Shown here: positions 38,745 to 46,038 of the stretch, one piece after another
Position numbering within the stretch: the stretch's first letter is position 1
How the letters are laid out: each line of letters starts with the position of its first letter
Assembly (NCBI GenBank): GCA_050942925.1
Contig: JBMNOF010000003.1
Span: forward strand, 25,314 to 89,313
Source: Candidatus Spyradocola sp.
GTDB lineage: Bacteria > Bacillota > Clostridia > Christensenellales > UBA1750
DNA length: 64,000 nucleotides
Direction: 5' to 3'
Program-made: the position numbers and the translations under genes
Notes under the pieces: generated by a model
What the model was told of the DNA's origin: nothing
The model's input: only the letters and a program-made list of their open reading frames with translations
The model's database searches: none

Positions 38745-39100
38745 CACCTTTTTTTCAGATTTTGCAATTTCTTTGGGCCTCATTTCCGGAGAAAAAAAGA
38801 AAAACCCCAAAGTGCCGCTCGCCCTATTTTGACACCTGCTACTCAAGCAGGGTGGTGCCCTGCGAACATCCGCTGCGGTCCACTGGCCGCCCGAAGGCGG
38901 GTGGCATGGCATTGGGGAGTCCGACGTGGGCTCCATTTAACGTCTGTAGGTTCAAAATCAGGACGTTACGCACACCCCAGGATTTCTTGGTTTTCATTAT
39001 AGCAACGTGTCCTACACTTTGTCAAGCGGACAAAAGCGGAAAGGAAGGCGGCCCCGCGTTTGGGCGGCGCTGCCTTCCTTTTTCTTCCGGGGCGCCCGCT

Positions 39101-39129
39101 TTGACGGCCGGGTCCGTCCCTGCTATACT
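39101..39129 (+). promoter_or_regulatory. candidate vanR-vanS promoter
   Basis: TTGACGgccgggtccgtccctgcTATACT (17-nt spacer), 32 nt upstream of the vanR ATG. Confidence 0.55.
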
Positions 39130-39160
39130 AGAGCCTGGGAAAGGGGGAACACAATCCGCC

Positions 39161-39859
39161 ATGAAAGAGAACATCCTGGTTGTGGACGACGAGACCGCCA
39201 TCGCAGACCTCGTGGGGGTATATCTTACAAACGAGGGCTACACGGTGTTCCCGTGCGGCACGGCGGAACAGGCGCTGCAAATCGTGGCGCGGGAGGAGCT
39301 CAGCCTCGCCATTCTGGACGTGATGCTGCCGGACATGGACGGGTTCACGCTCTGTCAGCGCATTCGGGAAACGCACTTCTTTCCCATCCTGATGCTGACC
39401 GCGCGCGGCGAGGACATGGACAAGATCACGGGCCTGACCCTGGGTGCGGACGATTACATCACCAAGCCCTTCAACCCACTGGAGCTCGTGGCGCGCGTCA
39501 AGACGCAGCTCCGGCGCTATCTGCGCTACAACGGCGGGGAAGGCGCCATGCCGGAGGATGAGATCGACATCCGCGGCCTGACCATTTCGCAGTCGCGGCA
39601 CCGCTGCACGCTCAACGGACAGGAGCTCAAGCTGACGCCCCTGGAGTTCCGCATCCTGTGGATGCTGTGCAAGCACTGCGGCAGCGTTGTATCCTCGGAG
39701 GCGCTCTTTGAGAGCGTTTGGGGCGAGAAGTATCTCGAGAACAACAACAATACCGTCATGGCGCACATCGCTCGCCTGCGCGAAAAGATGCGCGAGCCTG
39801 CGCGCCACCCGAAATTCATTCGGACCGTTTGGGGGGTGGGGTACACCATTGACCCGTGA
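39161..39859 (+). CDS. vanR: VanR-type OmpR-family response regulator
   Basis: Start trimmed to ATG 39161. MKENILVVDDETAIADLV...LAILDVMLPDMDGFTLCQRIRE...ILMLTARGEDMDKITGLTLGADDYITKPFNPLELVARV. The C-terminal winged helix is FIRTVWGVGYTI. Sits in a van operon. Confidence 0.8.
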   Translation: MKENILVVDDETAIADLVGVYLTNEGYTVFPCGTAEQALQIVAREELSLAILDVMLPDMDGFTLCQRIRETHFFPILMLTARGEDMDKITGLTLGADDYITKPFNPLELVARVKTQLRRYLRYNGGEGAMPEDEIDIRGLTISQSRHRCTLNGQELKLTPLEFRILWMLCKHCGSVVSSEALFESVWGEKYLENNNNTVMAHIARLREKMREPARHPKFIRTVWGVGYTIDP

Positions 39860-40982
39860 AAACAACCGTCGCCGCGCGAACCGCAAGGGCCTGCGCAGCC
39901 GGCTGACGCGCCGCATCGCCGCGCTGTACCTGCTGTCGCTGTTCGTATTCGTGTCCTTGGTACTGCTGTGCCTCTTCTTTAGCTGGCAGGTCTGCGCCTC
40001 CATCACCTGGTATCCGGACGACCCGCTCTACCGGATTCTCTCCCTTCTGCGGGACTACCTGCCGCTGACGCTCGGCGTGCCGCTGTTCCTGGGCTGGGCG
40101 ATCCTCACCTATGCGTTCATGGGCCTGCCCTTGCGCTACCTGGATGAAGTGATCGACGCCTCGGAGCAGCTCGTCTCCTCGCGCGAGCAGCCCATCTTCC
40201 TGAGCACGCCCTTGCAGGGCGTGCAGGAGGAGCTCAACCGCTTCCGGGAACAGGCCCTTTCCAGCGAGCGTGCCGCACAGGAAGCGGAGCAGCGCAAGAC
40301 CGAGCTGATCGTCTACCTTGCGCACGATCTCAAGACGCCGCTGACCAGCGTCATCGGATATTTGACGCTCCTTCGGGACGAGCCCAACCTCTCCCTGGAG
40401 TCGCGCGCCCGCTTCACGGGCATTGCGCTCTCCAAGGCCGAGCGCCTGGAGGACCTGATCAACGAGTTCTTTGACATCACGCGCTTTAGCCTGACGACGC
40501 TCACCCTGGAGCGGAAGACCATCCACTTCAGCCGCATGCTGGAGCAGATCGCCTTTGAATTCCGGCCCCTGCTTTCGGAGCGCAACCTGGAAATGGACCT
40601 GCAAATCCCGCCGGGGGAAACCGCGTTTCTGGACCCGGACAAGATGGAGCGGGTCCTGGACAACCTTCTGCGCAACGCGGCGCACTACGCCACGGCGGGC
40701 ACCAAAATCCGCCTATCCCTGCGCCGCCTGCCCGCGGGCCTGGAGATCCGGGTGGAAAACCAGGGAAAGACCATCCCCAAGGAAAAGCTGGACCACATCT
40801 TTGAGCGGTTCTTCCGCCTGGACGACGCGCGCTCCTCGGACACGGGCGGCGCAGGTCTTGGCCTTGCCATCGCCAAGGAGATCGTGGAGCAGCACGGCGG
40901 CACCATCGCCGCCGAGAGCCGGGAGGGGAGCATCGCCTTTACCGTCTTTCTTCCCCAGCGCCCCGAAAGCGCCCCCACGTGA
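39849..40982 (+). CDS. vanS: VanS-type sensor histidine kinase
   Basis: H-box AEQRKTELIVYLAHDLKTPLTSVIGYLTLLRDEP and ATP-lid RLDDARSSDTGGAGLGLAIAKEIVEQHGG closely track VanS sequences as I recall them. The start is taken as TTG 39849 (no in-frame ATG before the TM segments) and is uncertain. Confidence 0.75.
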   Translation: MTRENNRRRANRKGLRSRLTRRIAALYLLSLFVFVSLVLLCLFFSWQVCASITWYPDDPLYRILSLLRDYLPLTLGVPLFLGWAILTYAFMGLPLRYLDEVIDASEQLVSSREQPIFLSTPLQGVQEELNRFREQALSSERAAQEAEQRKTELIVYLAHDLKTPLTSVIGYLTLLRDEPNLSLESRARFTGIALSKAERLEDLINEFFDITRFSLTTLTLERKTIHFSRMLEQIAFEFRPLLSERNLEMDLQIPPGETAFLDPDKMERVLDNLLRNAAHYATAGTKIRLSLRRLPAGLEIRVENQGKTIPKEKLDHIFERFFRLDDARSSDTGGAGLGLAIAKEIVEQHGGTIAAESREGSIAFTVFLPQRPESAPT

Positions 40983-41052
40983 CCTTCAGAAAATCGCAAG
41001 AAATTCCTCACAAAACCACAAGGCTTTGGAAAGAAAGCGCGAAACCCTTTTT

Positions 41053-41098
41053 CGCCCCGTTCGACTACAATGGCAATGTCGAACGGGGCGGTTTTCGT
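41053..41098 (+). terminator. 13-bp-stem hairpin with T-tract between vanS and vanW
   Basis: CGCCCCGTTCGACtacaatggcaatGTCGAACGGGGCGgttttcgt. The loop contains TACAAT, so the hairpin may overlap the vanW-operon promoter. Confidence 0.55.
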
Positions 41099-41121
41099 AT
41101 GCGCCCCGGGAAAGGAGCACC

Positions 41122-41982
41122 ATGCGGAACTTTCGCCTCACCGAGCGCTTTCCGTTTCTCTTGCCGCTGCGCGTCTTTCAGCGGCGCCTCTTTTTCTACT
41201 TGCGAATGCGGTTGGACGGCCGCAGATACTGCCGCGCGCACAGCGCGCAGGATCTGCCCCACCTCGTCTACGCCTCCGCCTCGCCCCTCTACAACACCGA
41301 GACGGGCTTCCCCATGCTTTACCAGGAAAACAAGGTCCACAATCTGCGCCTTGCCGCCCAAAAACTCGACGGCTTGCTCCTCCGGCCAGGGGAAACCTTC
41401 TCCTTCTTTCGGAGCATCCGCGGCGCGGACCGAACCGAGCCCTACAAGGACGGCTTGACCGTCCTCAACGGCAAGCTCGTCCCCGCGCCGGGGGGCGGAA
41501 TGTGCCAGATGAGCAATCTGCTCTATTGGCTCTTCCTCCACGCGCCGCTGCGGGTCGTGGAGCGCCACGGGCATCGGGTGAAGGACTTCCCCGATCCCCC
41601 GAGCGACGCGCCGCACGGCGTGGACGCCACGCTGCACGAGGGCTGGCTGGACCTGAAGGTGCAAAACCCCACGGAAACCACCTATGAGATCCGCCTGGAC
41701 TTTGCGGGCGACCAGCTCATCGGCCGCTTGCTTTCGGACCGGGACGACGGCCTCGCCCTGGAGGTGCGCAACGGAGAGATCGCCTATGTGCGGCGCAAGG
41801 GCGAGATCTATGAGGAAGCCGACGTCCTGCGCCGCGTCCTGGACCGGCGCACGGGGGCGTGCCTGCGGGAGGAGAAGCTCTACCGCAACGTCTGCCGCGT
41901 GGGCTATGCGCTTGCGCCGGACACGCCCGTGCAGGAAGCGGATGGAGAGGGAAAAGGAGGAAACGAACCATGTCTCAACTGA
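41122..41982 (+). CDS. vanW: VanW-family protein
   Basis: Start ATG 41122 (GGAAAGGAG RBS). GETFSFFRSIRGADRTEPYKDG...GGGMCQMSNLLYWLFLHAPL is the VanW signature. Confidence 0.8.
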   Translation: MRNFRLTERFPFLLPLRVFQRRLFFYLRMRLDGRRYCRAHSAQDLPHLVYASASPLYNTETGFPMLYQENKVHNLRLAAQKLDGLLLRPGETFSFFRSIRGADRTEPYKDGLTVLNGKLVPAPGGGMCQMSNLLYWLFLHAPLRVVERHGHRVKDFPDPPSDAPHGVDATLHEGWLDLKVQNPTETTYEIRLDFAGDQLIGRLLSDRDDGLALEVRNGEIAYVRRKGEIYEEADVLRRVLDRRTGACLREEKLYRNVCRVGYALAPDTPVQEADGEGKGGNEPCLN

Positions 41983-43022
41983 ATGTCGCCGTGCTCTTTG
42001 GCGGGCGGTCGCCGGAGCACGAGGTTTCCCTGCAATCGGCCGCCTCTGTTCTGCGCAATCTGGACCGCAAGCGCTTTTGCCCGCTCCCCGTGGGCATCTC
42101 GAAGGCGGGGGATTGGTTCCTCTTCTCCGGAAACGAGGACGCCATCGCCGATGGGTCCTGGCTCTCGCTGCCGGAGTGCGAACCCTGCGTGCTCCTGCCG
42201 AACCGGAGCGCGCGCAGCCTGCTCGCGCACGCACCCGCAGGGGACAAGCACATCCCGATCCACGCGGTCTTTCCCGTGCTGCACGGCTCCAACGGCGAGG
42301 ACGGCACCGTGCAGGGCCTGGTGGAGCTCGCCGGCCTGCCGCTGGTGGGTTGCGGAACGCTCTCCTCCGCCCTTTGCATGGACAAGCACCGCGCGCACCA
42401 GCTGGCGTCCCTTGCGGGCGTGGCCGTTCCGCGCGGGCGCGTCGTGGACGCCCGCACGCCCCGGGAGGAGGTCCTGCGCTTCGCGCGGGAAATCGGCTAC
42501 CCGCTGTTCGTCAAGCCCGTGCGCGCCGGCTCCTCCTTTGGCATTGCGCGCGTGGAGGGACCGGAAGGTGTGCCCGACGCCTTGCAGCTCGCGCTGCGCT
42601 ACGACCGCGAAGCCCTTCTGGAAGAGGCGATTCCCGGCTTTGAAGTGGGCTGCGCCATCGTGGGCCGGGGCGCGGATCTCTGCCTGGGCGAGGTGGACGA
42701 AGTCGAACTCGCGTCCGGCTTCTTCGACTACGAGGAAAAGTACACGCTCAAGACCTCCGCCCTGCACGTGCCGGCGCGCCTTGCGCCCGCGGACGCCGCG
42801 CGCGTCCGGGAGGCGGCCGTCGCCGTCTACCGCGCGCTGGACTGCGCGGGCTTTGCGCGGGTGGATCTGTTCTTCACCCCGGAAGGCCGGGTCGTGTTCA
42901 ACGAAGTCAACACCATCCCCGGCTTTACGGAACACAGCCGGTTTCCCGGCATGTTGCGCGCGGCGGGGTACGGGTTTTCGGAAATCCTGACGCGGATGGT
43001 GGAGGAGGCGCTGCGCGCATGA
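41970..43022 (+). CDS. vanG: VanG-type D-alanine--D-serine ligase
   Basis: Start ATG 41970 (AAAGGAGG RBS). Long stretches match my recollection of VanG: VLFGGRSPEHEVSLQSA, VFPVLHGSNGEDGTVQGLVELAGLPLVGCGTLSSALCMDKHRAH, PLFVKPVRAGSSFGI, GFEVGCAIVG, SGFFDYEEKYTLKTS, VFNEVNTIPGFTEHSRFP. Confidence 0.8.
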   Translation: MSQLNVAVLFGGRSPEHEVSLQSAASVLRNLDRKRFCPLPVGISKAGDWFLFSGNEDAIADGSWLSLPECEPCVLLPNRSARSLLAHAPAGDKHIPIHAVFPVLHGSNGEDGTVQGLVELAGLPLVGCGTLSSALCMDKHRAHQLASLAGVAVPRGRVVDARTPREEVLRFAREIGYPLFVKPVRAGSSFGIARVEGPEGVPDALQLALRYDREALLEEAIPGFEVGCAIVGRGADLCLGEVDEVELASGFFDYEEKYTLKTSALHVPARLAPADAARVREAAVAVYRALDCAGFARVDLFFTPEGRVVFNEVNTIPGFTEHSRFPGMLRAAGYGFSEILTRMVEEALRA

Positions 43023-43801
43023 GGACGATTTCCCTCTCCCCCATGGATCTCCACCGCGGGGAGCTCATTCTGGTCAACGCCGCGCACGCCTGCTGCACCG
43101 GGGAGGCGCTCTCCCTGGTTCCCGCGCAGGAGGGCAGTTCCGTGCTCCTGCACCGCCGCGCGGCCGTGCTCCTCCACGCCCTCATGGCGGAGATCGACGG
43201 CTGGTCCGGCATTGTTCCGGTCAGCGGCTGGCGAAGCCACAATGCGCAAAAGCGCATCTATGCAGACTCTCTCTGGGAGAACGGCGCGGCCTTTACGCAG
43301 GCCTTTGTCGCCCTCCCCGGCCACAGCGAACACCAGACGGGGCTGGCCATCGACCTGGGCCTCCGGCAGGAGCGCGTGGACTTTCTCTGTCCGGACTTCC
43401 CGTATGAAGGCCTTTGCCAAACCTTTCGGGAGCGCGCGGCGGACTACGGCTTTGTGCTCCGCTACCCTGCGGGCAAGGAATCGGTCACGGGCATCGCGCA
43501 CGAGCCCTGGCACTTCCGCTTTGTGGGGATGCCGCATTCGTTCCTCCTTGCGCAGGAAAGACTCGTGCTGGAGGAGTACGTGGATCTGTTGCGCGGCCAT
43601 CCTCTGGGCCGTCCCCTCTGCGCGGAGATCCGCGGCCACGCATTCCGCATCTCGTTTCTGGACGCGCGCGAGCTCGCGCAGGCCCAACTTGCGGCGGACG
43701 ACGCGGCGCCCCTACACGTTTCCGGCAACAACGTCGACGGCTACATCCTGACGGAATGGGGGGAGACGCATGTGCGGCTCACAGCGCTTCGGGGCGCTTG
43801 A
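43019..43801 (+). CDS. vanXY: VanXY-type D,D-dipeptidase/D,D-carboxypeptidase (M15 family)
   Basis: Zinc-site motifs SGWRSHNAQ, SEHQTGLAIDL and EPWHFRFVG. ATGA overlap with the vanG stop. Confidence 0.8.
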   Translation: MRTISLSPMDLHRGELILVNAAHACCTGEALSLVPAQEGSSVLLHRRAAVLLHALMAEIDGWSGIVPVSGWRSHNAQKRIYADSLWENGAAFTQAFVALPGHSEHQTGLAIDLGLRQERVDFLCPDFPYEGLCQTFRERAADYGFVLRYPAGKESVTGIAHEPWHFRFVGMPHSFLLAQERLVLEEYVDLLRGHPLGRPLCAEIRGHAFRISFLDARELAQAQLAADDAAPLHVSGNNVDGYILTEWGETHVRLTALRGA

Positions 43802-45920
43802 CCGGTTTCGCCCGCTCGCCGCGCTGCTGGTCATCGCCCTGCACACCTATCCCCTTGCGGACCTCAGCGCGGACGCCGAATTCCTCCTCACGCGCGTGCT
43901 TGCGCGGCTGGCCGTGCCCTTTTTCCTGATGGCGACCGGACAGTTCACCGTTCTTCCCTTGCTGGAGGCGGGCGAGCAGGCCCGCGCGGGGCTTGGGCGC
44001 TTTCTGCGCAAGACGGGCCTGTTCTACGGCGTCTGCATCCTTCTCTACCTGCCGCTCGGGATCTACGGCGGCCGGTACGAAGGGCTGACGCCGCTTTCCG
44101 CGCTGCGCCTTCTCCTCTTTGACGGTACCTACTACCACCTCTGGTACTTTCCCGCATCGATGCTGGGCGCCTCCATTGCGCTCCTGCTCCGGCGCGCGCT
44201 CGGGCGAAGGGGCGCGCTGGCCGCATCCGCCCTCCTCTACGCCCTGGGCCTGCTCGGGGACAGCTACTGGGGCTTGACCGCGCAAATTCCCGCCCTCTCC
44301 CGCGGGTACGAGGCGCTGTTTTCCCTCTCCACCTACGCGCGCAACGGGGTCTTTCTGGCCCCGGTGTTCCTGCTCCTGGGCGCGGAACTGGGCGGCGGCG
44401 CGCTTCGCCTGTCGCGCCGGGCAGCCGGCGCGAGCTTGGCGCTTTCCCTGGTGCTTTTTGGCGCGGAAGCGCTCCTGCTGCGCGCGCTCGGTTGGCCGCG
44501 ACACGACAGCATGGCGGTCTTCCTCCTGCCCGCATCGGCCTTTCTCTACCGCCTGCTGCTGGATCTGCCCTGCGCGTCCCGGCCGGAGCTGCGCGCCCTA
44601 TCGGGATGGGTGTACGCGCTGCACCCCCTGTGCATTTCCGGCGTCCGCGTCCTGGCACGGCTTCTGGGGCAAACCGACCTTTTCGTGGAGAACAACCTGG
44701 TGCACTTTCTTGCCGTAGCGCTCCTGTCATTCTGTCTCGCGTTCGCCGTCGCCGCCCTTCTGTCCTATCTGCGCGAACGACGCGCGCGCCCGGACCCCCG
44801 TCGGGCCCGCGCGTGGGTGGAGCTGGACGGCGCGGCGCTGCGGCACAATGCGCGGGCGCTGCAAGCCCTGCTGCCGCCGAATTGCGCGCTTCTTCCCGCG
44901 CTCAAGGCGGACGCCTATGGCCATGGCGCGGTGTTTGCGATGCGGGAACTCCAGCGCGCGGGCGTTTTCAACTTCTGCGTGGCGACCGCGCCGGAAGGGG
45001 CTGCGCTCCGCCGCGCGGGCGCGCGGGGGGAAATCCTTGTCCTGGGGTACACGCCGGAATCGCTCTTTCCCCTGCTTCGCCGCTGGCGGCTCTCGCAAGC
45101 GGTGGCGGACCTGGCGCATGCACAGCGCATGAACGCATACGGCCATCCCCTGCGCGCGCACGTGGCCGTCGACACCGGGATGCACCGCCTGGGCACGGAT
45201 GCGGGGGATGTCGAGGCGCTTCAACAGATCTTCTCCCTGCCCAACCTGCGCATCCGGGGGATCTTCACGCATCTGTGCGCTGCGGACGGCCGGAGTGCGC
45301 GGGACCGCGCCTACACACAGGAACAGATCCAAGCCTTCCAGTCGGCGCTGGACGCGCTCGCGGCGCGCGGCGTCGCCCTGCCCAAGCGCCATATTCTGGC
45401 CAGCGCCGGCCTATTCGCCTGCCCCGAGGCCGGCGGCGACTGGGCGCGGGCCGGCCTCGCGCTCTACGGCGTGCCCCCGGTCTTTGCGCGGGAAGCCGGC
45501 GCCGGATTGCGCCCGGTCCTCTCGCTGAAGGCGCGCATCGCGCTGGTGCGCACCCTTCCGCCGGGCGCGCACGCGGGATACGGCCTCGCCTTTACCGCCG
45601 CGCGGGAGAGCCGGATCGCGGTGCTCTGCATCGGATATGCGGATGGATTGCCGCGCGCGCTCTCCTGCGGCGCGGGCTGCGCGCTCGTCCACGGCCGCCG
45701 CGCCCCGATCGTCGGGCGGATCTGCATGGACCAGACGCTCCTGGACGTGACGGACATCCCAGGCGTATCGCCAGGGGACGAGGCGGTTCTGCTGGGGGAG
45801 CAGGGCGGCGCTCGCCTGCACGCCTGGGATGTGGCCGGGGCCGCCGGCACGATCCCCAACGAGATTCTGAGCCGCCTGGGAAGCCGTCTGCCGCGCATTC
45901 CCCATTCGGAAGCGCGCTAG
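43770..45920 (+). CDS. vanT: VanT-type membrane-bound serine/alanine racemase
   Basis: The N-terminal ~330 aa form a multi-TM acyltransferase-like domain (FGALDRFRPLAALLVIALHTYP). The C-terminal PLP racemase has VELDGAALRHNARAL...LPALKADAYGHGA...ICMDQTLLDV. Confidence 0.8.
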   Translation: MCGSQRFGALDRFRPLAALLVIALHTYPLADLSADAEFLLTRVLARLAVPFFLMATGQFTVLPLLEAGEQARAGLGRFLRKTGLFYGVCILLYLPLGIYGGRYEGLTPLSALRLLLFDGTYYHLWYFPASMLGASIALLLRRALGRRGALAASALLYALGLLGDSYWGLTAQIPALSRGYEALFSLSTYARNGVFLAPVFLLLGAELGGGALRLSRRAAGASLALSLVLFGAEALLLRALGWPRHDSMAVFLLPASAFLYRLLLDLPCASRPELRALSGWVYALHPLCISGVRVLARLLGQTDLFVENNLVHFLAVALLSFCLAFAVAALLSYLRERRARPDPRRARAWVELDGAALRHNARALQALLPPNCALLPALKADAYGHGAVFAMRELQRAGVFNFCVATAPEGAALRRAGARGEILVLGYTPESLFPLLRRWRLSQAVADLAHAQRMNAYGHPLRAHVAVDTGMHRLGTDAGDVEALQQIFSLPNLRIRGIFTHLCAADGRSARDRAYTQEQIQAFQSALDALAARGVALPKRHILASAGLFACPEAGGDWARAGLALYGVPPVFAREAGAGLRPVLSLKARIALVRTLPPGAHAGYGLAFTAARESRIAVLCIGYADGLPRALSCGAGCALVHGRRAPIVGRICMDQTLLDVTDIPGVSPGDEAVLLGEQGGARLHAWDVAGAAGTIPNEILSRLGSRLPRIPHSEAR

Positions 45921-46038
45921 CCATACGGAGACGAAAACTTTCTCCGTTTCCGCTGGGAATCATTGGGGTATGTAAAAACATAGAGGGAACGCATTCCCTC
46001 TGGATTTCCCCTATGCCGCGCGCGGGAAGAAAAAGCGC

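Follow-up and report, generated by a model that had tools for sequence, protein, structure and literature searches.

Is the run of van-like genes in a 64-kb stretch of DNA from Candidatus Spyradocola sp. (contig JBMNOF010000003.1; the whole stretch is called the window below) a complete glycopeptide-resistance operon, and what is the hairpin that separates its regulatory genes from its resistance genes? The window comes from an uncultured gut bacterium of the Clostridia, whose genome assembly amounts to 2.54 Mb in 172 contigs and is 93% complete. The locus is very probably an intact vanG-type (D-Ala-D-Ser) operon for glycopeptide resistance, carried on the chromosome and inherited vertically. 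More tentatively, we propose that the vanG-type operons of Clostridia share a bifunctional element, in which a terminator of the vanRS transcript holds the VanR-dependent -10 of the resistance promoter in its loop and would stop read-through while sparing induced transcripts. The operon is ordinary in kind, and this promoter within a terminator may be its one new feature.

Six intact open reading frames (ORFs) lie on the plus strand from 39161 to 45920 in the order vanR, vanS, vanW, ligase, vanXY and vanT (Table 1). Adjacent genes overlap by 11 nt (vanR/vanS), 13 nt (vanW/ligase), 4 nt (ligase/vanXY) and 32 nt (vanXY/vanT). Gene callers place the start of the vanS orthologue of G003, a congener, at the same 11-nt overlap with vanR. 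An earlier reading of this DNA, the original prediction, had described six overlapping genes in canonical order. The ORFs are indeed intact and in place, with the difference that vanS and vanW do not overlap, and the peptide motifs that it quoted are all found in the translations (SGFFDYEEKYTLKTS, SEHQTGLAIDL, EPWHFRF, LAHDLKTPLTS and DTGGAGLGLAIAKEIV). Its statement that vanU and vanY are missing also holds. The sequence upstream of vanR contains a 6S RNA gene and two tRNA genes, with no ORF from the 6S RNA gene to vanR; the locus has neither a vanU-like nor a vanY gene.

The ligase was compared with curated models and structures. Its best NCBIfam model is NF000091 VanG (479.7 bits), followed by the generic Ddl (352 bits), D-Ala-D-Lac (331 bits) and generic D-Ala-D-Ser (329 bits) models. 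The VanG score is 15 bits short of the cut-off of 495, and the NCBI cut-off rule would name the protein a D-Ala-D-Ala ligase family protein (PRK01966.1-4, 352 bits, cut-off 262). The best Protein Data Bank (PDB) match is 4FU0, the VanG ligase of Enterococcus faecalis, at 390 bits versus 287 for VanA-type ligases. The alignment to VanG covers residues 4-344 without large gaps. Furthermore, the omega-loop segment GFFDYEEKYTLKTS is of the VanG type, unlike that of VanA and VanB (GIFRIHQE...) and unlike that of the Ddl of this genus. Asp243, Phe252 and Arg324, considered as VanG markers, are conserved in the ligase but in the alignment also in VanA and VanB, and were discarded as non-discriminating in favor of the omega loop. 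The enzyme thus belongs with the VanG group of D-Ala:D-Ser ligases, not with housekeeping Ddl or D-Ala:D-Lac ligases, and the original prediction of vanG-type enzymes is borne out by the best PDB matches of VanXY and VanT as well.

In a maximum-likelihood tree the ligase pairs with that of G003 (support 96/97) and then, less firmly, with a metagenome fragment that is 68% identical to it (81/93). This clade is placed in an unresolved cloud of VanG-type enzymes, among them 4FU0 and proteins named VanG from metagenome-assembled genomes. VanA and VanB occupy a separate long branch, and the housekeeping Ddl enzymes of two congeners form a distant outgroup. Clustering with Ddl, the outcome that the original prediction had set against itself, is therefore not seen; the ligase lies among VanG-type enzymes, far from the Ddl of its genus. 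Identity to anything outside the genus does not exceed 68%. Another congener, G001, carries a different vanG-like cluster at another site (L016 6280-12241) in the order R-S-W-G-T, in which no vanXY was detected. Its ligase is 53% identical to that of the window and is sister to E. faecalis VanG (100/100).

VanXY has its best PDB match in 4F78, VanXYg of E. faecalis, over the full length (211 bits). The zinc and catalytic motifs, SEHQTGLAIDLG and EPWHFR, are identical to those of 4F78, as befits an M15 D,D-peptidase. The Pfam VanY model is passed, and the NCBIfam models vanXY_G (203 bits, cut-off 500) and vanXY (192.5 bits, cut-off 250) are failed. No VanXY paralogue was found elsewhere in the genome assembly.

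VanT passes the NF033131 VanT-G model for the catalytic part (467.6 bits, cut-off 460), while the full-length model gives 512 bits, far from its cut-off of 900. The best PDB match is 4ECL, VanTg, with 333.6 bits versus 222 for the best alanine racemase. A membrane domain (Pfam Acyl_transf_3) spans residues 9-328. The features expected of a serine racemase were taken from PMC4542195 and bioRxiv 10.64898/2026.10.22.760690. VanT keeps the catalytic Lys376 and Tyr603 as well as the specificity residue Asn696 (N697 here), and so combines Asn at VanTG position 696 with a membrane domain and a neighboring ligase. Changing Asn696 of VanTG to Tyr lowers serine turnover about 30-fold (PMC4542195). At three supporting positions, usually Tyr543, Ser567 and Thr695, the protein has Ala, Pro and Pro, of which the first two are the residues of alanine racemases. 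Among about 76 VanT sequences sampled, this A/P/P/N signature (543, 567, 695, 696) occurs only in the window and in G003. Because single mutants at the three supporting positions have no direct effect on specificity (PMC4542195), we read VanT as a probable serine racemase.

The remaining genes are a two-component system and an accessory gene. VanR passes NCBIfam NF033117 VanR-ABDEGLN (371.5 bits, cut-off 350) and has Pfam Response_reg and Trans_reg_C domains. VanS has NF033091 VanS as its best model (373.8 bits, below the cut-off of 400), carries HisKA and HATPase_c domains, and by eye has two N-terminal membrane-spanning segments joined by a short loop of about 24 aa. As in vanG-type clusters, this pair adjoins the resistance genes. 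VanW passes NF033128 vanW-gen (373 bits, cut-off 365) and matches Pfam VanW. Pfam domain assignments are consistent with the identities of all six genes. The scores of the ligase, VanS and VanXY, all below their curated cut-offs, point to a divergent lineage.

How the cluster came to this site was examined in congeners. G003 has it at the same site, with van proteins 77-87% identical to those of the window and flanking proteins 87-95% identical. In G005 the site is empty; homology to the window ends at about 39026, exactly at the 6S RNA promoter, and resumes at about 46240. Between the window genome and G003 the van genes have ratios of nonsynonymous to synonymous substitution rates (dN/dS) of 0.10-0.33 and the flanking genes ratios of 0.08-0.19, and dS is alike for the two sets. 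Because dS is alike, the cluster is, judged by these rates, vertically inherited from the common ancestor with G003 and kept under purifying selection. A mobile element was also sought, but no recombinase, transfer gene or border repeats were found at the cluster when it was compared with the empty site of G005 and the syntenic site of G003. The suggestion of the original prediction that the locus is a resistance reservoir fares poorly, as mobility genes are absent and the rates indicate vertical descent. A chromosomal cluster that is not visibly mobile is a poor candidate for a transferable reservoir.

Two promoters would serve the operon. A near-consensus candidate precedes vanR, and a scan revealed no VanR box in direct orientation upstream of it; this vanRS promoter is probably constitutive. 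In E. faecalis, too, VanRG leaves its own promoter unbound (PMC4405338). Three VanR-box-like repeats begin directly after the vanS stop codon, at about -95 to -62 relative to the start of transcription predicted for the resistance genes. Compared with the E. faecalis VanRG consensus YCGTANGAAAWT (PMC4405338) they have 2, 1 and 4 mismatches, the third having been compared by eye. Sites with one mismatch or fewer to this consensus number only 2 in the window, and G003 shares the first two boxes. A TACAAT hexamer lies 61 bp after the second box. The corresponding -35 position (41043-41048, AACCCT) is poor, and transcription is predicted to start at about 41077-41080. The mapped PYG promoter of E. 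faecalis also combines a TACAAT -10 with a poor -35, and its boxes extend from -100 to -56 (PMC4405338); the distance from boxes to TACAAT in the window agrees with this footprinted promoter.

The TACAAT hexamer is located in the loop of a hairpin between vanS and vanW, and the predicted start falls in its 3' arm. The hairpin (41052-41091) joins 41053-41065 to 41078-41090 by 13 Watson-Crick pairs and has one further pair, U-G. It encloses a loop of 12 nt (41066-41077) and is followed by a tract of four T (41092-41095). The folding energy is -27.6 kcal/mol (z = -3.9), and none of 200 shuffled sequences folds as well. The consensus terminator scan, with its loop limit of 8 nt, missed the hairpin, and Rfam shows no known RNA family there. 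The original prediction had reported a 13-bp stem with a T-tract at this place; the structure is real, and what had been overlooked is the -10 in its loop. Two transcription units had been deduced from it, a view strengthened by the recurrence of this hairpin with compensatory stem changes in many related operons.

This recurrence was first seen in a survey of the spacers between vanS and the first resistance gene. In 26 of 35 spacers, drawn from diverse genomes, TAnnnT stands at the junction of the 5' arm and the loop of the strongest perfect hairpin. The same test applied 3' of vanT gave 8/70. The stems differ in sequence and reach 24 bp, and a T-run usually comes after them. In a non-redundant alignment of 20 sequences, the only invariant columns are the T, the A and the final T of the -10 hexamer. 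For these 20 loci RNAalifold predicts a helix of 16 pairs, 14 of which show compensatory changes. Paired cells make up 89.6% of the helix versus 71.9% in shuffled alignments (0/500 reach the observed value), and slid controls give 40-49%. Cells with double changes number 66, versus 20.7 in the shuffles.

A covariance model, R1, was then searched against 1.21 Mb on both strands, comprising the window and 83 related loci. Plus-strand matches with E ≤0.01 were obtained in 48/83 loci, of which 30 had played no part in training the model. Each match precedes a resistance gene, be it vanG, vanW or vanXY, by 13-343 nt, and in most cases vanS ends 48-150 nt before the match. The window has a single match, at 41050-41101 (33.6 bits, E 2.5e-5). 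No match was found in the 8 loci in which vanRS is divergently oriented. This absence fits an insulator against read-through from an upstream co-directional unit. The sole match off a main operon is at L029 12245-12296 (+), downstream of the cluster, where a second vanXY/vanY-like gene begins 113 nt farther on. The element may be a general marker of promoters under VanR control.

We read the hairpin as a putative intrinsic terminator of the vanRS transcript that overlaps the resistance promoter. In the proposed mechanism vanRS would be transcribed from the near-consensus promoter, and the transcript would stop at the hairpin. Under cell-wall or glycopeptide stress VanS would phosphorylate VanR, which on the three phased 11-bp boxes would recruit RNA polymerase to the promoter with the poor -35 and the TACAAT in the loop. 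Having begun in the 3' arm, transcripts induced in this way would be without the 5' arm and could form no terminator. VanT would then supply D-Ser and the ligase D-Ala-D-Ser, VanXY would remove D-Ala-D-Ala and D-Ala-ending precursors, and VanW would have an accessory role. If this is true, the resistance genes are held tightly off and kept silent without a VanU-type repressor. If confirmed, the element would also be of use as a compact terminator-promoter part of natural origin and, in metagenomes, as a sequence marker of promoters under VanR control.

Several observations weigh against this account. The T-tract has only four T and in G003 is displaced by 7 nt. The covariation set was assembled from the best hairpin of each spacer, which biases the percentage of paired cells; the covariance-model search is less biased. 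Three of the six proteins score below NCBI curated cut-offs, and the supporting residues of VanT are atypical. There is also the precedent of Clostridioides difficile, in which about 85% of strains have a functional vanG cluster without clinical resistance and vancomycin resistance needs constitutive VanSR mutations (PMC8868222).

The last three points equally favor an operon that is intact and inducible yet phenotypically silent, with the vancomycin minimum inhibitory concentration of the host not raised, as in most C. difficile. We regard such silence as less likely than not. All six genes are under purifying selection across two species and every catalytic residue tested is kept, both of which argue against it. 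At the level of sequence a silent operon and one that confers resistance are compatible, phenotype being the sole difference.

The hairpin itself could be explained in other ways, each less likely than an overlapping terminator and promoter. It might be a leader attenuator, with the promoter farther upstream and transcription stopped unless some factor relieves the hairpin. In favor of an attenuator, the stem and the T-run after it come shortly before the first resistance gene, at a distance of 13-343 nt in relatives. However, the only invariant columns of the alignment are the T, the A and the final T of the -10 hexamer at the junction of 5' arm and loop. Furthermore, the window shows no TAnnnT hexamer from the VanR boxes to the hairpin, the spacing of boxes and -10 is that of the footprinted E. 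faecalis promoter, and there is no alternative antiterminator pairing. Attenuation is improbable.

A slightly poorer candidate still is a DNA operator, in which the inverted repeat would bind a dimeric repressor that occludes the -10 and would have no function as RNA. The palindrome around the -10 is perfect, and the E. faecalis repressor VanU binds over the resistance promoter (PMC4405338). Conversely, the locus has no vanU-like gene, and the arms vary widely between loci in both sequence and length (10-24 bp) while remaining complementary and tolerating G-U pairs. The T-run that almost always comes next and the absence of the element where vanRS is divergent also count against an operator.

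Searches with the ligase, PF07478 and TIGR01205 found no other Ddl in the 93%-complete assembly. A housekeeping ddl is present in 7/7 congeners. In G003 it sits between two genes; their orthologues in the window genome are truncated, one by the end of contig C48 and the other by the start of contig C133. Because all congeners carry ddl and its neighbors are cut at contig ends, the missing ddl is an assembly gap between C48 and C133 and not a biological absence. It is accordingly very improbable that the ligase of the window is the sole D-Ala-D-X ligase of the cell and acts as its housekeeping enzyme, a reading suggested by the lack of a second Ddl in the assembly but opposed by the separate ddl of every congener and by the truncated neighbors. 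A housekeeping alanine racemase is encoded on contig C35. The omega loop of Ddl normally closes over the active site. In the housekeeping Ddl of this genus the omega-loop region is enlarged by about 30 inserted residues, mainly Gly, Lys and Ala-rich sequence (GGKGGKGGKLGPAKAMPAKGAPVKAGGAKG).

The closest characterized system is the vanG operon of E. faecalis BM4518, vanU-R-S / vanY-W-G-XY-T, which has R-S followed by W-G-XY-T in common with the window. The ligase, VanXY and VanT structures from this strain are the best matches of the window enzymes, and the resistance promoters are alike in their -10, poor -35 and phased upstream VanR boxes. Unlike the E. faecalis operon, the window lacks vanU, vanY and a mobile element and so lies outside the E. 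faecalis vanG operon in the strict sense. Its ligase also falls under the NCBI VanG cut-off, and its VanT differs from that of E. faecalis at 543, 567 and 695. The paper on the E. faecalis promoter makes no mention of a hairpin (PMC4405338), and no description of a stem-loop or terminator at vanG promoters was found in the literature searched, a search that left key papers outside its range.

The vanG-like cluster of C. difficile (vanR-S / vanG-XY-T) is likewise chromosomal, non-mobile, controlled by VanRS and of the D-Ala-D-Ser type in an anaerobic member of the Clostridia, and is often silent (PMC8868222). Unlike the window it has no vanW. The W-less order R-S-G-XY-T is the commonest among the 83 related loci. 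vanW is found in about 11 of these, and the exact order R-S-W-G-XY-T in about 5 complete loci (e.g. L039, L041, L082, L105). Clusters of gut Lachnospiraceae and Oscillospiraceae (Acetatifactor, Roseburia, Papillibacter, Subdoligranulum) have the same enzyme set. These two families account for most of the related ligase loci, at least 549 among species-representative genomes, whose ligases are 51-62% identical to that of the window. The window lineage, with G003 and the 68% metagenome fragment, instead forms a clade of its own. The operon itself adds little, as clusters of the vanG type abound in gut Clostridia. It does illustrate what happens when curated cut-offs and active-site rules are applied to a lineage that is divergent but probably functional.

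Table 1. Coordinates of the operon, its control elements and neighboring features. Positions are those of the window unless a locus is named.
Feature	Position	Strand	Description
vanR	39161-39859	+	OmpR-type response regulator, 232 aa
vanS	39849-40982	+	membrane sensor histidine kinase, 377 aa; TTG start inferred
vanW	41122-41982	+	accessory protein, 286 aa
ligase	41970-43022	+	VanG-type D-Ala:D-Ser ligase, 350 aa
vanXY	43019-43801	+	M15-family bifunctional D,D-dipeptidase/D,D-carboxypeptidase, 260 aa
vanT	43770-45920	+	probable serine racemase with membrane domain, 716 aa
vanRS promoter candidate	39101-39129	+	TTGACG-17-TATACT, TG before -10; consensus scan, 10/12 matches
three VanR-box-like repeats	40983-41016	+	CCTTCAGAAAAT, TCGCAAGAAATT, TCCTCACAAAAC; 11-bp spacing
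-10 of resistance promoter	41066-41071	+	TACAAT, in hairpin loop
hairpin between vanS and vanW	41052-41095	+	14 pairs, 12-nt loop, TTTT
hairpin 3' of vanT	45982-46001		consensus scan: 8-bp stem, minus strand
6S RNA	38800-38986	-	Rfam RF00013, full-length match
G003 flanking genes (LacI-type, flavodoxin-like)	L017 4737-5924 and 12672-13550; also L107
housekeeping ddl with omega-loop insertion	L019 3824-5050 (G003); L018 6594-7832 (G007)	-	insertion of about 30 aa

The probable end of the operon is the hairpin 3' of vanT, whose role on the plus strand is inferred only. To the right of the cluster are a gene for a TM1266-type regulator and then hydG; to the left are an ABC exporter, tRNA-Glu, tRNA-Gln and the 6S RNA gene. 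The stretch between the tRNA/6S genes and the hydrogenase-maturation genes is a variable region. In G003 a LacI-type regulator gene lies upstream of the van cluster and a flavodoxin-like gene downstream of it; both are absent from the window, and the empty-site congener G005 keeps the flavodoxin-like gene only.

The 6S RNA match scores 46.0 bits versus a gathering score of 46.4 (E 6e-7) and is directly preceded by a perfect TTGACA-18-TATAAT promoter at 39025-38996 (-). Between this promoter and the divergent vanR promoter, at 39045-39090, lies another hairpin, GGAAGGC...GCCTTCC followed by TTTTTCTT, which may insulate the two promoters from each other.

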